Shown: piece after piece, positions 16,039-61,257 of the stretch
Layout: the number at the start of each line of letters is the position of its first letter
How positions within the stretch are numbered: position 1 is the first letter of the stretch
Origin: an uncultured Pseudomonadota bacterium
Lineage (GTDB): Bacteria; Pseudomonadota; Alphaproteobacteria; RF32; CAG-239
Direction: 5' to 3'
Length of the DNA stretch: 64,000 bases
Assembly (NCBI GenBank): GCA_902785935.1
Contig: CADAAN010000006.1
Span: forward strand, 4,309-68,308
The notes under the pieces: model-generated
Databases searched by the model: none
Seen by the model: the letters and a program-made list of their open reading frames with translations, nothing else
Told to the model about the DNA's origin: nothing
Program-made: the position numbers and the translations under genes

Positions 16039-16236
16039 TTGACTTTTATTTTAAAGTATGCCATAATCAAAAGCGTAACCAAAATGGTTATGGTGTTTAG
16101 ATAACACATTCGAGTTAAGGCTCCTTTGAAAGAGGAGTTGTTGATATAAGGCAATTTTTGCTCGAATAAGACAAACTGTAACTCGACAGTTATCTAGCTC
16201 CTCCATTTTGAGATTTTTCAAGATGGATTTTTTTTT
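16039..16236 (+). promoter_or_regulatory. Leader family A, copy A1: promoter + ~160-nt structured leader + terminator
   Basis: TTGACT (16039-16044), 17 nt, CATAAT (16062-16067). The conserved GTAACCAAAATGG starts at 16075. Covarying helices are described in the findings. The hairpin TCCATTTTGA/TCAAGATGGA plus T9 ends at 16236, 30 nt before the LRR gene. Confidence 0.7.
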
Positions 16237-20593: not shown

Positions 20594-21493
20594 TTATCTG
20601 TACCTGATTTTGACCGAATTGACTTTGCCTGCGATGGCATTTGCTTCATCGATGGTGTAGATACGCTTTGGGATATAATCTCCTTTTTGCATCGCGGAAA
20701 TTGAGGCATAAGTTTTCTCACCGATACGATATTTCCCGTCAGGTGTCTTAGAATAATGAATAATTTTCGGGTTTTTACCCGTTTGAAGCGCTATTCTTGA
20801 ACATACCTCTTCGGAAGCCGCACAATATAGTTTTTGAAGGTTTGTGTTTGTAAAAGCTTCATCATCAATATTTGTCACACTATTCGGAATAACAAGTGTT
20901 TCAAGTGTTGAAATATCAGCAAGAGACGTCCAACCGATTGAGGTTACACCTTCAGGGATTTCCAGATTTTTAAGTTTTGTTCCGACAAAAGCTCTATCAG
21001 GAATTTCTGTTTGAGCCTGCCCAAGCATCAAATAATCTATTTTTGTTGCCGCAAAACTCCAAGCACCGACATATTGAAGATTTAGAGGTGTATTAATTTC
21101 TTTTAATAAATCTGCACCCTGAAATGCAGCACCGCCAATTTGTTCAATAGAATCCGGCAAATCAATACTGCTGATTTTTGTATAAGCAAGTGTATAACTA
21201 CCGATATTGGTTAAAGAATCCGGCAATGAGACACTTCGAATAGTTTCAAGTTTTTCAACCCATGGTGTTCCCGGCCTTTGGTTTTTAGAATCCCATTCGT
21301 AATTTGTCATTTTTCCGACAGGTGCATTTTCATCTTTGGCTTCAATTGAAAAAAGACCTGTCTGCTCATTTAGTCTGGCAAGGCAATTAGCGCCGCAATC
21401 CCAACAATTGATGTTTAAATCATCACCGCAAGTATTGACTGCTTTAGCTTGAGAGCTCATTGTCAGTAAAAAAAATAAAATCCATTTTCTCAT
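20594..21493 (-). CDS. Secreted BspA-type LRR protein with conserved C-terminal tag
   Basis: Signal peptide (..SSQAKA-VN), Cys-rich N-terminus, LRR_5 repeats. C-terminus KRIYTIDEANAIAGKVNSVKIRYR. Confidence 0.85.
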   Translation of the reverse strand: MRKWILFFLLTMSSQAKAVNTCGDDLNINCWDCGANCLARLNEQTGLFSIEAKDENAPVGKMTNYEWDSKNQRPGTPWVEKLETIRSVSLPDSLTNIGSYTLAYTKISSIDLPDSIEQIGGAAFQGADLLKEINTPLNLQYVGAWSFAATKIDYLMLGQAQTEIPDRAFVGTKLKNLEIPEGVTSIGWTSLADISTLETLVIPNSVTNIDDEAFTNTNLQKLYCAASEEVCSRIALQTGKNPKIIHYSKTPDGKYRIGEKTYASISAMQKGDYIPKRIYTIDEANAIAGKVNSVKIRYR

Positions 21494-21511: not shown

Positions 21512-21711
21512 AAAATAAAAAACCGTTTAAGATAAACCAAAAACGGAGGAGCTAAACGAACTGCACTAAATCAGTTAAGCTTATTCGAGGTATTAACCCT
21601 TATATCACTTACTCCTCTCTAAAGGAGTATATTTTTAGTGCAAGTGTCGTTTAAACACCGCAACCATTTTGGTTACGCTTTCATTTAAGCATATATCAAA
21701 ATACTTGTCAA
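21512..21711 (-). promoter_or_regulatory. Leader family A, copy A2: promoter + structured leader + terminator
   Basis: Minus strand: TTGACA (21711-21706), 17 nt, TTAAAT (21688-21683). GTAACCAAAATGGTTGCGGTG starts at 21676. The terminator CCGTTT/AAACGG plus T-run ends near 21512. Confidence 0.7.
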
Positions 21712-29406: not shown

Positions 29407-30540
29407 CTAACGATATCGAATCGAGAAGGTGTTTGTTTTGCCCGCCACCTGATTCGCCTCATCGACGGTATAAATGCGCTTGCCCTCATAGCCGATAATC
29501 TTGCCATCTTCATAAATGGCCGTACTTCCATCGGCTAATTTTTTAGAGTATTTAACTGCCATAATGTCAGCAAAGTCATTCGGGTCAAGCCCTGCCGCCT
29601 CAATATTTCTTTGGCACTTAGCGACAGATCCGGCACACTGTATTTCTATGTTGCTTATATCAAGGTTATCGAAAGGAGAATAAATTCTGTCATAACTAAA
29701 AAATACTTCACAGCTATCCATTTCATATGTACAGCCGGCTTCTAAAGCTTTACTATAAAGTTGTGTATAATCTTCTTCGCTCATATGGCTACGGTTATTT
29801 TCTACATTTTCTAAGCTGTAAAAATCATCTTCTATCACATATCTGCTGAATGCAAAATTAAAATCATCTGATACTGTGATTCTTTCAAGATTTTTAATAC
29901 CCTTAAAAGCACCTTCATCAATATACTCAACCGAATCTGGCAATGTAAGGCTTATCAAACCTGACATACCCATAAAAGCATCTCTCTCTATATTTGTAAC
30001 CGAATCCGGAATAGTAAGATTAGTAACGTTTCTCATATACGCAAATGCAGTATCTTCAATATTTTTCAGTGAATTTGGTAAAGTTAAATTTGTAACAGCA
30101 GTAACATCATAAAATGCACCGCTACCGATATCTTCCACCGCATTACCGATTGTTAAATTTGTTACGTTAATCATATTACTAAAAGCACGATCACCAATAG
30201 AAACCACAGAATCTGAAATTTCAATGGATGTAGCATTTGTAGCTTCTCTAAAAGCATTATTTCCAATTGTCGTTATACCTTTTTCTACAACAACAGAGGT
30301 GATATCTTCGCGAATAGCATGCCATGGCATACTGTAATGATACCAACCAGAATAATTCTTATTTTCAAAATCATCCATAGCACCAGTGCCGGAAATAGTC
30401 AAAATACCGCTATCCGTATCCAAGCTCCAATAGCAATTCTCGCCGCATTTTTTGTAGCCGCTGTTTGTACCAATAATATCTGCTTTGACGCCTGAGGATA
30501 ACAAAATAAATCCCATCATCAGAATACATTTATTTTTCAT
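29407..30540 (-). CDS. Secreted BspA-type LRR protein with conserved C-terminal tag
   Basis: Signal peptide (..SSGVKA-DI) and about 7 LRR_5 repeats (TNLTIPDSVTNIERDAFMGM...). C-terminus KRIYTVDEANQVAGKTNTFSIRYR. Confidence 0.9.
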   Translation of the reverse strand: MKNKCILMMGFILLSSGVKADIIGTNSGYKKCGENCYWSLDTDSGILTISGTGAMDDFENKNYSGWYHYSMPWHAIREDITSVVVEKGITTIGNNAFREATNATSIEISDSVVSIGDRAFSNMINVTNLTIGNAVEDIGSGAFYDVTAVTNLTLPNSLKNIEDTAFAYMRNVTNLTIPDSVTNIERDAFMGMSGLISLTLPDSVEYIDEGAFKGIKNLERITVSDDFNFAFSRYVIEDDFYSLENVENNRSHMSEEDYTQLYSKALEAGCTYEMDSCEVFFSYDRIYSPFDNLDISNIEIQCAGSVAKCQRNIEAAGLDPNDFADIMAVKYSKKLADGSTAIYEDGKIIGYEGKRIYTVDEANQVAGKTNTFSIRYR

Positions 30541-40815: not shown

Positions 40816-41673
40816 TTAGCGATACCGAATCGAAAAAGTGTTTGTCTTGCCTGCAACTTGATTGGCCTCATCGATGGTGTAAATGCGCTTTGGTGCGTAA
40901 TGTTGATTGTAAATATCATTTGGGGAACTGTAAAACCTTCCGTTATAATAATAACCTGTTGAGTATTTTTGATAAAATTTAATTTTATCGCCAATTTCTT
41001 CATCGTCTAAAAGAGCCTGACAACTGGCATTTGTGTCTTCGCAATAAATAGCCAAAGATTCTGACAATGCTTTATTTATGGAATTAGTAAGCATTTTTTT
41101 TGTAATCATGGTCGAACCGGATATGGTTAAAGATTTCAATTCCGTGCCGCCTAATGTCCAATCTTCATCTTCAAGAATAACATCTTTGGGTAATACAATA
41201 TCTTCAACTTTTGTACGATTAAAATTAGCCCCTCCGATAAAAGTCAGACTATTTGGTAAATTAATTTTTTCAAGTGATTGAGTATCATTAAAAGCACCAC
41301 CCGAAATCTTTTGAAGTCCTTCGGGTAAAACAGCCTCTCGCAAATCAAACAAATATTCAAAAGCAGAAGAACCAATTGATTTAAATATTTTATCACTTGA
41401 TTCGTTTTCGATAACGACTTTATAAATTTGTGAAGAATAGGCTCCCCAATCGGCTGTATTATGGCACCATGGGTCACAGCTGTGACTATAATTTTTCATA
41501 TCACCATAACCTTTAATGGTTAATGTATTCGTGTTTTTATCAAGTGTTGCTGTACAACTATCATTTGAGGTTGCCGCACAGTCAAATGTACAAATATCAC
41601 TGTTATCACAAAGTGTATCAGCATATGTATTAAAAGCCGTAAATATACAAAAAATATAAATTACTTTTCTCAT
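40816..41673 (-). CDS. Secreted BspA-type LRR protein with conserved C-terminal tag
   Basis: I placed the true start at ATG 41673 (MRKVIYIFCIFTAFNTYA-DT, with GGAGAA 7 nt upstream). The 67-codon N-terminal extension in the track ORF runs through the conserved leader RNA. C-terminus KRIYTIDEANQVAGKTNTFSIRYR. Confidence 0.85.
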   Translation of the reverse strand: MRKVIYIFCIFTAFNTYADTLCDNSDICTFDCAATSNDSCTATLDKNTNTLTIKGYGDMKNYSHSCDPWCHNTADWGAYSSQIYKVVIENESSDKIFKSIGSSAFEYLFDLREAVLPEGLQKISGGAFNDTQSLEKINLPNSLTFIGGANFNRTKVEDIVLPKDVILEDEDWTLGGTELKSLTISGSTMITKKMLTNSINKALSESLAIYCEDTNASCQALLDDEEIGDKIKFYQKYSTGYYYNGRFYSSPNDIYNQHYAPKRIYTIDEANQVAGKTNTFSIRYR

Positions 41674-41987: not shown

Positions 41988-42025
41988 GAAATTTTAAAAT
42001 ATTTTAATACGTGATTTGGCTGTGA

Positions 42026-42213
42026 ACGTAAATAAAAGCTTAGAATGAGCTAGATGCGACGGAAGCTCTTTTACGAAGTGTACAAAAGAGGTTGTATACG
42101 TAAATAAAAGCTTAGAATGAGTCAAGTACGACGTACGGCCGCTTGCGCAGTGTACAAAAAGGGTACATAAGCAAGCGGCCGCACAAGTAATTGGCCATTA
42201 TAAGCTTTTATTT
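42026..42213. repeat. Nested repeat element: 72-bp tandem duplication plus an inverted terminal copy overlapping the nusG stop
   Basis: ACGTAAATAAAAGCTTAGAATGAG occurs at 42026-42049 and 42098-42121. GTGTACAAAA lies 52 nt after each. The inverted copy TAAGCTTTTATTT is at 42201-42213. There is an internal GC-rich hairpin GGCCGCTTGC/GCAAGCGGCC (42137-42180). Confidence 0.6.
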
Positions 42214-45086: not shown

Positions 45087-45986
45087 TTATCGATACCTTA
45101 TTTTGAAAGAATTAACCTTGCCCGCGACGGCATTCGCCTCGTCGATGGTATAAATGCGGATATCGGCACGAGCAGGAACAGATGGCAAGACAGATGGAGA
45201 AACAGTTCCTGATGCTGAAGCAATTTTTGCTCTGCAAGAAGTCTCCGTTTCGCAACCCTCTTCCGTTCCTCCCAACATCATTTTTGCTGCTGAAGAGTAA
45301 TAATTATCACCAACTTTATATACCCCATCTTCTTTAGTATATTGTTCAATTTTTGACGTCCCATGGCCTTTACAAATATTAACATCTTCGCAAAAAAGTT
45401 TTGTGTTGCTGGCAAACGGAAAGTTAACAATTGTTGTTCCTCTGCTAATAATGACATTGTTCAAGGATTCATTTTGAAAGCTACTTCCAAAAGCATCCTG
45501 ATTAATTTTCGTTACACCGCTTAAATCAATATCATGCAGGTTGGTTGTATATGTAAAAGCGCCACTTCCAATTTCTTTAACTCCTGTAAAATCCACACTC
45601 GACAAAGCAGATCGCGAAAAAGCGGTTCCGCCGATTGATGTAACACCGCTTGCAAAAGCAAGTGAGGTTACACCTTGAGGAAGCATTGATGTCCCATAAG
45701 TGTCATCTGCAAAAGCTGATCTCGGTACTTTGTATGTGAGATTGCCGTTTGAATCTGTTGAAGTAATTGATGACCCCTGAATGGTCATTTTTCCGTTATC
45801 AATAGTGTAGTATGTGAGCATATGAGAGGCATAGCTACTGGCTTGCGACAAACATCCTTCGCCATAAGTTGAAACACAAGCCTGACAAAATGTGTTCCCT
45901 TCAGGGCACTCAATTAAAGCAATGGAAATTTTTGAAAATGAAACTGTTGCTACTAATGCCGAGGTTAAAAAAATATTTCTAGTCAT
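45087..45986 (-). CDS. Secreted BspA-type LRR protein with conserved C-terminal tag
   Basis: N-terminal signal-like segment, Cys-rich region, LRR_5 repeats (VTSLAFASGVTSIGGTAFSRS...). C-terminus IRIYTIDEANAVAGKVNSFKIRYR. Confidence 0.85.
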   Translation of the reverse strand: MTRNIFLTSALVATVSFSKISIALIECPEGNTFCQACVSTYGEGCLSQASSYASHMLTYYTIDNGKMTIQGSSITSTDSNGNLTYKVPRSAFADDTYGTSMLPQGVTSLAFASGVTSIGGTAFSRSALSSVDFTGVKEIGSGAFTYTTNLHDIDLSGVTKINQDAFGSSFQNESLNNVIISRGTTIVNFPFASNTKLFCEDVNICKGHGTSKIEQYTKEDGVYKVGDNYYSSAAKMMLGGTEEGCETETSCRAKIASASGTVSPSVLPSVPARADIRIYTIDEANAVAGKVNSFKIRYR

Positions 45987-46020
45987 AACTTTTCTCCTAT
46001 TTTTCTTATTTACACTGTTG

Positions 46021-46212
46021 AAAAAATCACTTCAGAAGATATCCGAAGTGGGAGCTAGAAAACTGTATACATTCAGTCAGACTTATTCGACATTTCAAAA
46101 CGCTTATATCATCTACTCCCGGTAAAAGGAGCGATATGTATAAGGTGTTTTCTAGACACCGCAACCATTTTGGTTACTTTTTTATTTTCACATAAAAAAC
46201 GTAGCTTGTCAA
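46021..46212 (-). promoter_or_regulatory. Leader family A, copy A3: promoter + structured leader + terminator
   Basis: Minus strand: TTGACA (46212-46207), 17 nt, GAAAAT (46189-46184). GTAACCAAAATGGTTGCGGTG starts at 46177. The terminator CACTTCGGA/TTCTGAAGTG plus T6 ends at 46021. Confidence 0.7.
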
Positions 46213-46353
46213 ATAAATTTTGTAAAAAATATCTTTTTTTGCTTGAAAAATAAAACTTTAATGATAAATTGTGCTTGAAATTTAAATTAACCCCCGTGCG
46301 GGGAATCCGCACAGCTCTTTTCTTAAGAGTTTACTTTTTTATAAGGATACTAA

Positions 46354-52863: not shown

Positions 52864-53061
52864 AAAAAAAATTCCGTTTTATATAACCAAAAACGGAGGA
52901 GCTAACTAACTGCCATTGTACAGCTTGCTTTATTCGCGCATCACTAAAATACCTTATATCAGCAACTCCTCATCAAGGAGCTATACAATGGATGTGTTAG
53001 TTAAACACCGCAACCATTTTGGTTACATCCTGATTATTTCATACAAAAGCATAAAAGTCAA
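52864..53061 (-). promoter_or_regulatory. Leader family A, copy A4: promoter + structured leader + terminator (pilin-like gene)
   Basis: Minus strand: TTGACT (53061-53056), 17 nt, AATAAT (53038-53033). GTAACCAAAATGGTTGCGGTG starts at 53026. The terminator CCGTTTT/AAAACGG plus T8 ends at 52864. Confidence 0.7.
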
Positions 53062-55490: not shown

Positions 55491-56090
55491 ATGGAAAAGA
55501 TTAAATCTGCTGTCAATGAAGCAGCGTTTATTCAAAGCGCTGACAGAGAAACTGTCAAGGAGTACATCTCCAGACACCCCCTCCACATAGAAGCTGATAT
55601 CCAGCTCCTTGAACGTGGAGATAAGGAACTTATTAAGCTTTACATCTCGCAGTTTTGCTTTTTGAGCAAGGCTGAAATCAAGCTCATCGAGCTTAAAGAT
55701 AAGGAACTTATTAAGCTTTATATCTCTCGCTGCGGCTTTGAGGATGAGGCCAAAATCAAGTTCCTGGAGATGAAGGATGTGGAGCTGATTAAGTTTTATA
55801 TCTCGAAACGGCCGTTTTTCAAAGCGGACATTAAGTTCCTTGAGCTCGGAAACAAAGAACTTATCGAGCTTTACATCTCGAAGTACAGATTTGAGGCTGA
55901 AGCGGAAATCAAGCTCATCGAGCTTAAAGATAAGGAACTTATCAAGCTTTACATCAAAAATCATCGCCTGAGAGATGATGCTGAGATGAAGCTCCTCGAT
56001 CTGAAGGATATGGAGCTGATTAAGATGTATGCCTTATATCAAGGCTTTTCTGTAAGCACGCAGATAAACATCTGTGAACTTATTGTTTAG
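55491..56090 (+). CDS. Tandem-repeat protein (six ~26-aa helical repeats, consensus AEIKLIELKDKELIKLYISxxxFxxE)
   Basis: 199 aa. There are near-identical 45-50-nt DNA blocks at about 55673-55722 and 55905-55953. GC-rich codon usage. Has its own TTGACA promoter (55420-55425) and terminator. Confidence 0.65.
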   Translation: MEKIKSAVNEAAFIQSADRETVKEYISRHPLHIEADIQLLERGDKELIKLYISQFCFLSKAEIKLIELKDKELIKLYISRCGFEDEAKIKFLEMKDVELIKFYISKRPFFKADIKFLELGNKELIELYISKYRFEAEAEIKLIELKDKELIKLYIKNHRLRDDAEMKLLDLKDMELIKMYALYQGFSVSTQINICELIV

Positions 56091-59994: not shown

Positions 59995-60609
59995 TTAGTA
60001 GAATTTCCAAGAAACCGTTGCTTGTTCGGTGCATGTAGCTACAGCACCTGTACCCGAAGCTCCGCCCATCGGATAAGGTTTACCCTCATCAGCACCTAGT
60101 ACTTTACCTTTGGCATAATTTGTACCGGTAGAAGCTTCAATTTCTACACCGATAAAACCCGAACCGGCACCCGAACCAAAATCAGCCGTTGCAAGTGCAA
60201 TGCAAGCCTCCTTAGGTAATCCTTTGTAACTGATTACAAAGGCTGTTGGTTTTGCATCACCAGTAATTGCTGTATTGACAGCAGAAATTGTATTTGAAGT
60301 AGCCATAGCTTCTAAAATTTGAACACTTCCTTTAAATGGGTTTGTTAAAGCGGCAGGAGATGTACCCATTACAGGCGGAACAATTCCTAAACTGACAGCT
60401 TGTGTCGCCAAGCCGGCGTAGTTACCCTGCTGTCCATACATTGTTCGGATGTTTGTCACAAGCATTGTGATTTGTTCCATTGTCGTGTTGAGTTTGTGTT
60501 TGAACATCGCTTTTGAATAGCCTGCCAAACCGCCGGCTGACAAAACACCGATAATCGCCAAAACACCAAGCATTTCAACCATTGAACGACCATTTTGATT
60601 ATTCTTCAT
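59995..60609 (-). CDS. Type IV pilin / pseudopilin-like protein (distal gene of pair)
   Basis: MKNNQNG-RSMVEMLGVLAIIGVLSAGG. The first ~65 aa are nearly identical to the upstream paralog. C-terminus ..VSWKFY. Confidence 0.8.
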   Translation of the reverse strand: MKNNQNGRSMVEMLGVLAIIGVLSAGGLAGYSKAMFKHKLNTTMEQITMLVTNIRTMYGQQGNYAGLATQAVSLGIVPPVMGTSPAALTNPFKGSVQILEAMATSNTISAVNTAITGDAKPTAFVISYKGLPKEACIALATADFGSGAGSGFIGVEIEASTGTNYAKGKVLGADEGKPYPMGGASGTGAVATCTEQATVSWKFY

Positions 60610-60648
60610 TTTTTTATTCCTTTATTAAACTGTTAAAAACTTATATGA

Positions 60649-61230
60649 TTAATAGAACTTCCAAATGATTGTGTTTTTTGCACCTGCACAATCACTAACT
60701 GCATCAGCCATTTCATACGCTTTTCCCTCAGCACGTTTGTTTGCAATGCCTGTACCAATGACTATAGAAGATCCATCTGCTGAGGCTGCTGCAGTACCTG
60801 TTTTATCGGCTATAACACCTACAAAACCTGAACCTGCGCCTGAACCAAAGTCAGACGTTGCCAAAGCAATACAAGCTTCTGTTGGTAAACCATCAAAAGC
60901 GACTGTAAATGATTCATTGTTTGTACCTGTAGCAACAATATTAACATTACCCTTAAATGGGTTTGTAAGTGTGGCTCCACTACCCATAACAGCCGGAACA
61001 ACACCAAGACTTGATGCTTCTGTATTTGTTAATCCCGCATAATTTCCCTGTGTGCCGTACATTGTACGGATATTCGTCACAAGCATTGTGATTTGATCCA
61101 TGGTGGTATTGAGTTTGTGCTTGAACATGGCCTTTGAATAACCTGCCAAACCGCCGGCTGACAAAACACCGATGATGGCAAGTACGCCAAGCATTTCGAC
61201 CATACTACGGCCGTTTTCGTTATTTTTCAT
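60649..61230 (-). CDS. Type IV pilin / pseudopilin-like protein (proximal gene of pair)
   Basis: MKNNENG-RSMVEMLGVLAIIGVLSAGG, Glu at +5. C-terminus ..IIWKFY. Confidence 0.8.
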   Translation of the reverse strand: MKNNENGRSMVEMLGVLAIIGVLSAGGLAGYSKAMFKHKLNTTMDQITMLVTNIRTMYGTQGNYAGLTNTEASSLGVVPAVMGSGATLTNPFKGNVNIVATGTNNESFTVAFDGLPTEACIALATSDFGSGAGSGFVGVIADKTGTAAASADGSSIVIGTGIANKRAEGKAYEMADAVSDCAGAKNTIIWKFY

Positions 61231-61257
61231 TTTTCAATTCCTTTTAAAAATTATTAC

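Follow-up and report, generated by a model that had tools for sequence, protein, structure and literature searches.

The minus strand of the window, the 64,000-nt stretch of DNA analysed here, carries at 46212-46021 a unit, A3, that shares a conserved leader core with three other copies in the same window (A1, A2, and A4; together family A) but ends in a different terminator. The locus raises the question of whether A3 is a working regulatory element, and of what its divergent terminator means for the way it may act. Its parts are a promoter of the sigma-70 type, a leader of ~157 nt, and a terminator with a 9-bp stem followed by T6 (Table 1). A promoter scan gives the promoter 10/12 consensus matches with the TG present, and the spacing suggests a transcription start near 46177. 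A T-run plus TTGAC(T/A)-17-TGnCATAAT, 6-7 nt 5' of the 5'-terminal hairpin P0, is found in 47/47 genome copies of the family. The protein encoded 3' of A3 has a signal peptide and BspA-type leucine-rich repeats (Pfam LRR_5, E = 8.6e-11). Its ATG lies 34 nt past the terminator U-run, and no separate promoter was seen between the A3 terminator and this ATG. On the other side of the unit, a GC-rich inverted repeat (GTGCGGGGAATCCGCAC, 46289-46314) that scores terminator-like on either strand lies between the A3 promoter and a divergently transcribed gap gene.

Table 1. Features of the A3 element, its downstream gene, and the family A copies in the window
Feature	Position	Strand	Sequence	Basis or remarks
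A3 promoter	46184-46212	-	TTGACA (46212-46207), 17-nt spacer, TG-extended GAAAAT (46189-46184)	
P0, 5'-terminal hairpin	46161-46177	-	GUAACCA-AAA-UGGUUGC	MFE folds and metagenome alignment
Element (i)	46156-46160	-	GGUGU	Partner is the tail (P1a, fold A) or ACACC 46148-46144 (fold B)
P1 5' strand	46147-46155	-	CUAGAAAAC	Partner 46063-46055
P2 5' strand	46136-46142	-	UAUACAU	Partner 46072-46066
P3 hairpin	46115-46132	-	GCUCCU-UUUACC-GGGAGU	3' strand (element ii) alternatively pairs with the tail
P4a, internal loop, and P4b	46079-46114	-	P4a: AGA/UCU	P4b is the variable hairpin 46102-46091
Near-invariant internal loop	46110-46103 / 46089-46082	-	GAUAUAAG / CGAAUAAG	Conserved strings
P2 3' strand, junction CA, P1 3' strand	46055-46072	-	P1 3' strand: GUUUUCUAG	P2 3' strand 46072-46066; P1 3' strand 46063-46055
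CUG	46075-46073	-	CUG	5' of the P2 3' strand; can pair with CAG
Tail (element c)	46050-46055	-	GCUCCC	Final C is the first base of the terminator stem
A3 intrinsic terminator, class II	46021-46050	-	CACUUCGGA-UAUCU-UCUGAAGUG, then A + U6	Terminator scan
Gene 3' of A3	45087-45998	-	SD AGGAG (45998-45994), ATG at 45986	299 aa
A1	16075-16236	+	Class I terminator CCAUUUUGAG...	127.9 bits; 5' of a 352-aa LRR_5 protein
A2	21517-21676	-	Class I terminator CCGUUUUUGG...	111.3 bits; 5' of a 299-aa LRR_5 protein
A3	46021-46177	-		121.4 bits, E = 9.5e-28 (model R1)
A4	52864-53026	-	Class I terminator CCGUUUUUGG...	124.7 bits; 5' of a 196-aa protein

The core strings on which the sequence-only reading had built its case are all present on the minus strand. 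TAGAAAAC (46154-46147) and GTTTTCTA (46063-46056) form a pair within 80-110 nt once, compared with 0.00 times in shuffled sequences; TATACAT (46142-46136) faces ATGTATA (46072-46066), TGATATAAG and CGAATAAG lie at 46111-46103 and 46089-46082, and TAGCTCCC ends at 46050. The terminator hairpin CACTTCGGA/TCTGAAGTG (46050-46028), followed by ATTTTTT, was also called by the terminator scan. A3 can be drawn with all helices of covariance model R1 (P0, P1a/P1, P2, P3, P4a, and P4b) and with its loop strings in register, and its core is the same conserved multi-helix core as that of A1, A2, and A4, as had been proposed; its R1 score is not independent, because A3 is in the seed.

Examination of other genomes shows that family A extends well beyond the window. 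A P0-string scan of species-representative genomes, followed by a covariance-model search of the loci found, which added three copies with a variant P0, gave 47 distinct genome copies, the window's four counted in. The roe-deer rumen MAG RGIG5118, labelled Alphaproteobacteria, has at least 35 leader copies, RUG11221 has seven, and a third MAG has one. A metagenome scan with a core-only pattern, blind to P0 and terminator, gave at least 120 loci, and in the first 100 of these (L171-L190 being left out) the covariance model found 109 sites, 93 of them distinct. These relatives come from rumen and human-gut sources with GC up to 0.55, and the loop strings are kept all the way from AT-rich rumen copies to the human-gut copies.

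At the gathering threshold, a search of the whole window against Rfam 15 returned two tRNAs only. Matches at E <= 10 across the A3 region were at chance level and to unrelated families, and a search of 18 diverse relatives gave only tRNA, 6S, and rpsB matches, elsewhere in their loci. A full-text literature search found no description of the leader family, which may be included among the many unnamed candidate RNAs near HTH-XRE genes reported by Fremin & Bhatt 2021 (PMC8040213). Family A is thus a leader RNA absent from Rfam 15, while the terminator-leader mechanism is itself of a known kind.

Other repeated elements were seen in the window. A second leader family, "B", of ~270 nt, occurs on the minus strand at ~30840-30520, ~41960-41640, and ~61540-61200, with a conserved GGGGAG...ACUCCCCG-CCGC tail followed by terminator, RBS, and gene. 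It has no Rfam match, one of its genes begins MKNNENGRSM and is pilin-like, and a CUCC/GGAG theme is common to families A and B. Further direct repeats are found at 55591-56033 (four copies at 78-nt spacing), at 42018-42161 (a 72-nt tandem pair adjoining a family B leader), and at 60410-61256 (a duplicate, 621 nt apart).

The alignments define a structure that we call fold A. P0 is followed by P1a (GGUGU with the tail RCUCC), stacked on P1, then by an internal loop (ACAYNU / CA) and P2, which opens to a three-way junction with P3 (CUCC...GGAG) and the arm P4a-loop-P4b. The internal loop between P4a and P4b is made up of two similar strands, GAnAUAAG and CGAAUAAG. The copies' own minimum free energy (MFE) structures have this architecture in 43 of 44 genome copies. 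Across these 44 copies, 90.8% of cells are paired (73.9% after shuffling), with 328 double-change cells vs. 107 in shuffled alignments and 0/500 shuffles as high, counts that do not represent independent events because the copies are paralogues. The 93 distinct metagenome sequences give 92.7% paired cells vs. 66.5% and 909 double-change cells vs. 264, again with 0/500 shuffles as high, and slid controls for fold A reach 39-49% paired. The core therefore held up in the structure-aware alignment over more genomes that had been suggested as a check, and the leader contains a covariation-supported structured 5' UTR domain of the kind expected of a riboswitch.

The support is spread over the helices. 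P1a pairs are G-C in 44/44 copies. Both sides change in five P1 pairs among the genome copies and in nine in the metagenome alignment, where P2 has changes on both sides in 7/7 pairs with 96.7% of cells paired; P4a (4/4) and P4b (4/4) covary throughout. P0 appears in the MFE of 44/44 copies folded, and in the metagenome alignment 7/7 of its pairs change on both sides. Because the metagenome set was gathered without using P0, this hairpin is independently supported. Its sequence is near-invariant within one genome and wholly different between lineages, with pairing retained. A mini-ORF, NUG-AUA-UAA, after the GGAG of P3 (AUG AUA UAA in A3) was considered and dropped, as many copies have NCG.

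These data bear on one explanation, that the leader is a non-regulatory 5' UTR cassette co-duplicated in a surface-protein family, or that P0 is a DNA operator, with the A3 hairpin a product of drift. The downstream proteins are paralogous (LRR_5, and a shared C-terminal motif), so that their UTRs may have been duplicated with them; 5'-terminal hairpins can merely stabilise mRNA, and P0 could be such a simple stabiliser; and its position at +1 to +17 is a frequent site of repressor operators. However, P1, P2, P4a, and P4b differ almost wholly in sequence between copies yet still pair, the differences being compensatory, which excludes plain DNA duplication, as the sequence-only reading had argued, and points to selection on RNA structure rather than inheritance. 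About 20% of P0 cells in the metagenome alignment are G-U wobbles, which break dyad symmetry and are strand-specific, indicating an RNA hairpin on the sense strand; with pairing kept across divergent lineages, this led us to reject P0 as an operator palindrome. Moreover, one leader type stands before unrelated genes (LRR, pilin-like, and HTH), and a strong terminator acting constitutively only 34 nt short of the start codon would make no sense without regulation. The non-regulatory cassette is largely excluded by the covariation, and we regard this group of explanations as very improbable.

A second set of conserved pairings, fold B, was picked by RNAalifold on the raw alignment and then tested on the metagenome alignment. 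Here GGUGU/GGAGU pairs with ACAC/ACUCC just 3' of the P1 5' strand, and the tail becomes the partner of the P3 3' strand. Pair 32:44 covaries (UA 53 / AU 18), as do the tail:P3-3' pairs 93:195 (GC 42 / AU 22 / UA 16) and 92:196 (GC 65 / AU 12). Examples of the tail:P3-3' helix are GAGGAGU:GCUCCUC, GUGGAGU:GCUCCAC, GGGGAGC:ACUCCCC, and GGGAGU:GCUCCC, and a CUG:CAG pairing becomes CUA:UAG in two relatives (L027 and L060). Fold-B-specific pairs are formed in 91.2% of cases vs. 43-58% in slid controls, and the P3 3' strand is complemented better by the tail than by the P3 5' strand. The start of the tail lies at the foot of P1 and hence ~17 bp away from the junction; a tail:P3-3' pseudoknot alongside P1/P2 was rejected on this geometry, and the pairing must belong to an alternative fold. 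Because fold B leaves P1 and P2 open and is incompatible with them, the RNA has the appearance of a switch between two states.

The tail:P3-3' helix takes in the first 1-2 nt of the terminator stem and P1a ends just short of it; in A3, C128 of the tail (123-128) has two possible partners, G150 when the terminator forms and G58 when fold B does. As the overlap is 1-2 nt only, an antiterminator effect of this helix is uncertain. The predicted energies of A3 are -43.1 kcal/mol for fold A plus terminator, -33.0 kcal/mol for fold B, and -48.4 kcal/mol for the unconstrained MFE, which puts fold A 5.3 kcal/mol above the MFE and makes fold B ~10 kcal/mol less stable than fold A; thermodynamic predictions alone thus do not favour switching in A3. 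The MFE uses a 6-bp CUUAUA:UAUAAG pairing (46146-46137 with 46108-46103) between the J1/2-P2 5' side and the conserved loop string, a complementarity specific to A3 and absent from other copies.

The terminators of the rumen group, to which the two-class split applies, fall into class I (32/47 genome copies, including A1, A2, and A4; CC(A/G)UUUU(U)G(G/A)...) and class II (15/47, including A3; CCCACUUUGGA...UCUAAAGUG). The 5' arm is CCATTTTG or CCGTTTTTGG in A1, A2, and A4 and CCCACTTCGG in A3, so that the TTTTGG segment is indeed absent from A3. The A3 hairpin had been called unrelated to the others. Its arm is different, but the term goes too far, and the hairpin is not a one-off: the class II arm (consensus CCCACUUUGG) stands where the class I arms stand, and the class recurs in the 15 genome copies and in three metagenome copies of other species with a different P0 (L133, L161, and L146). 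Stem positions 6-8 vary among class II copies with pairing kept, and the U-run is at least 6 in every copy. Among the 18 hairpins of class II, that of A3 has the highest predicted stability (-12.2 to -12.6 kcal/mol), owing to a U-to-C change that creates a C-G pair.

Class II differs in the core as well. The C following GGUGU (C23) is found in 10/15 class II vs. 3/32 class I copies (p = 1e-4) and GGGAG in 15/15 vs. 7/32 (p = 2e-7); class II also carries the tail CUCCC, tail type correlating with P3 type. Class II thus forms a coherent sublineage, the change of terminator being accompanied by changes in the core. The view of A3 as a conserved sensor with an exchangeable platform, typical of modular riboswitches, stands insofar as the same core is joined to a different platform; the platform is not a free module, given the linked core changes, and A3 is not a proven riboswitch.

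The two classes also differ in their relation to P0. The class I 5' arm complements the P0 5' half and loop (CAAAAUGG:CCAUUUUG or AACCAAAA:UUUUGGUU), and the class I 3' arm (CAAAAUGG / CAAGAUGG) repeats P0 sequence. When transcripts were folded to the terminator loop, pairing between the 5' arm and P0 was predicted for 19/32 copies of class I and for 0/15 of class II, which makes the missing TTTTGG in A3 mechanistically meaningful. Of all upstream segments, P0 gives the class I arm its best duplex in 28/32 copies (about -9 kcal/mol); the class II arm:P0 duplex is weak (-5.7 kcal/mol, one A-C mismatch), and the best duplex partner of the A3 arm (-6.3 kcal/mol) lies outside P0. A P0 antiterminator for A3 was accordingly rejected: CCAAAAUGG and CCACUUCGG have two mismatches, and the pairing is not in the MFE. 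Altered P0 sequences come with matching arm changes in five relatives (L026, L097, L118, L124, and L054), and a swap permutation of the P0-arm match across the family gives p = 0.0145, a signal concentrated in two lineages; the complementarity is lineage-specific, and many GC-rich relatives are without it. In class II, the sole conserved competitor of the terminator would be the tail:P3-3' helix, which overlaps its first base pair (1 nt in A3). The idea that J1/2 CACUU mimics the class II 5' arm was not retained, as the enrichment was only marginal (6/15 vs. 4/32, p = 0.054). Several RGIG5118 copies (L020, L027, L034, L049, L054, and L070) have, directly 3' of the terminator and before the gene, a GC-rich ~60-nt repeat (GGTTTGGGTTAATATTTGCCACCCC...CCCTCCCCCCTCTTGA.CGCGCCAAAGGC) that could be REP-like or a small mobile element.

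Taken together, sequence comparison and structure modelling suggest, with a little over even confidence, that A3 is one working member of a class of riboswitch-like, two-state leaders that act in cis by transcription attenuation. An effector recognising the invariant loop, the candidate effector site, together with the junction would bias fold A against fold B. In class I leaders (A1, A2, and A4), closure of P1/P1a would set the P0 5' half beside the terminator 5' arm, and the two could form an 8-11 bp antiterminator, leading to read-through; the on/off logic would follow this scheme. In class II, where the P0 antiterminator is missing, tail:P3-3' would be the one conserved competitor of the hairpin, and the A3 terminator would be conditional. 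Since A3 lacks the P0 pairing and has the strongest hairpin of its class, tighter or differently gated termination is predicted: with the same sensor, A3 may be off more tightly by default than A2 and A4, or respond at another threshold.

The genes under the leaders bear on what the effector may be. Each leader in the window and the MAGs runs in the same direction as a gene that has an SD and a signal peptide, with the start codon usually 20-60 nt past the U-run (100-170 nt in a few copies with an insert), too near the terminator for a promoter of its own. Most of the encoded proteins are of the BspA-type LRR kind, together with prepilin-like ones; the A4 protein has a prepilin-like N-terminus (GRSMVEMLGVLAIVGVLSAGA) and no Pfam match. 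Four secreted-protein genes share their C-terminal ~25 residues (...RIYTIDEAN.VAGK.N.F.IRYR; 20595-20668, 29408-29481, 40817-40890, and 45088-45161), which could be a sorting or anchoring signal of a surface-protein family. Metagenome relatives with downstream sequence mostly precede a gene for a 75-100 aa XRE/Cro-type HTH protein (Pfam HTH_31/HTH_3) with a conserved C-terminus, ...Y(G)K.(I/V)KIELVD. One of them (L073) lies in a chromosomal setting, with neighbouring ORFs that look, by eye, HflKC-, DegP-, and autotransporter-like. A custom HMM detected no gene of the associated HTH family in the window, nor in the MAG loci retrieved (~330 kb).

In gut metagenome contigs, promoter-leader-terminator units also form tandem arrays, gene-less between units, that end at the small XRE-type HTH gene; one (L076) has four copies with a 258-nt period on the minus strand (1297-390), and others are found in L153, L110, L112, L131, and L156. 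Such arrays would suit stand-alone sRNA genes, trans-acting or serving as decoy or sponge, with downstream expression a matter of leak-through. Every unit has its own promoter and strong terminator, and at least 35 copies in one MAG would give an abundant ~155-nt RNA. The window and MAG copies, however, all share the orientation of a gene that has an SD and signal peptide and would lack a promoter of its own, and the conserved alternative tail pairings beside the terminator fit a cis switch. A3 itself does not qualify as an independent sRNA gene, for despite its own promoter and terminator the gene follows 34 nt past the U-run. The sRNA reading, which is compatible with a cis role, seems to us distinctly unlikely as the main explanation.

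No coherent pathway that would name a ligand emerges from these genes, which are neither metabolic nor transporter genes. Surface LRR, pilin-like, and XRE HTH genes indicate no metabolite and make a protein effector a live alternative. For the cis-acting leader, we tentatively lean towards a small molecule or second messenger as the effector, only just ahead of a protein, which might be the small XRE HTH protein whose gene follows many relatives.

In its full form, the protein alternative is an attenuator or autoregulatory leader in which a protein, perhaps the HTH protein, would bind the internal loop or P0 and thereby control termination or translation, with the surface-protein genes of the rumen species as its RNA regulon. 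A leader preceding the gene of its own binding protein is a classic signature of autoregulation, and the small HTH gene lies directly 3' of most metagenome relatives with downstream sequence. A P0 near-invariant per genome and differing by lineage is what a lineage-specific partner would give, the pseudo-symmetric loop strands GAnAUAAG and CGAAUAAG would suit a dimer, and there is an HTH precedent in Aca2, which binds its own mRNA. Yet RNA binding is rare among XRE-type HTH proteins, the gene was not found in the window or the ~330 kb of MAG loci, and it may be just another regulated gene. The loop is also invariant while the HTH proteins are highly divergent, unlike co-evolving partners. We judge this alternative to be rather unlikely, though to be taken seriously.

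More speculatively, and with somewhat less conviction still, the leader may belong to a riboswitch class not yet described, whose ligand could be a signalling nucleotide and which would control dozens of surface-protein genes per genome in rumen and gut Alphaproteobacteria through two platform subclasses. The suggestion of a signalling nucleotide comes from the pseudo-symmetric loop and the regulon of adhesins, pilins, and regulators. The co-existing subclasses with and without the P0 antiterminator would then lend one signal a different threshold or polarity from gene to gene, A3 belonging to the second.

If it is a genuine switch, the leader would be the master cis-element governing what uncultured gut and rumen Alphaproteobacteria display at the cell surface, namely BspA-like adhesins and pilin-like proteins, together with a small regulator; with at least 35 copies in one genome, it would have few equals in copy number among known cis-regulatory RNAs. 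Because one sensor is joined to two platform subclasses, the effect of terminator design on output could be compared in a ready-made natural experiment. The family, which is well defined by covariation and has no Rfam entry, is suitable for inclusion in RNA family databases, and the invariant 8+8-nt loop, an obvious candidate binding site, allows a direct search for its effector.

Among known systems, trp/pyr attenuators resemble class I in that the P0 3' arm, the P0 5' half, and the terminator arms form a 1:2, 2:3, 3:4 series. In the family A leader, by contrast, segments 2 and 3 are separated by a structured core of ~110 nt and a leader peptide is absent; the A3 subclass is also without the 2:3 pairing. 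Protein-dependent leaders (BglG/LicT-RAT, PyrR, ribosomal-protein, and Aca2) likewise combine structured RNA with a terminator, and often precede the gene of a small nucleic-acid-binding protein; the leader shares with them a genome-specific conserved hairpin. Unlike BglG/LicT-RAT, it has no RAT-like overlap of protein site and terminator, its associated XRE-type HTH protein has no known RNA-binding role, and its core is far more elaborate.

Terminating riboswitches such as the purine and TPP classes are like the leader in their place in the 5' UTR, their junction and near-invariant internal loop, their covarying helices, the adjoining intrinsic terminator, the mutually exclusive alternative pairings, and terminator stems that vary on a kept core. 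The leader, in contrast, has no Rfam 15 match and a gene context that suggests no ligand; its P0 joins the platform in one subclass, it occurs in at least 35 copies per genome, and its genes are surface, pilin-like, and small HTH genes rather than metabolic or transport genes. Riboswitches of the c-di-GMP-I/II and cGAMP classes can be numerous in a genome and arranged in tandem, and their regulons include pilins, adhesins, and transcription factors. No sequence or structure similarity to them is seen at E <= 10 across A3, and the likeness is one of regulon type only; the pseudo-twofold internal loop of the leader would suit a symmetric dinucleotide.
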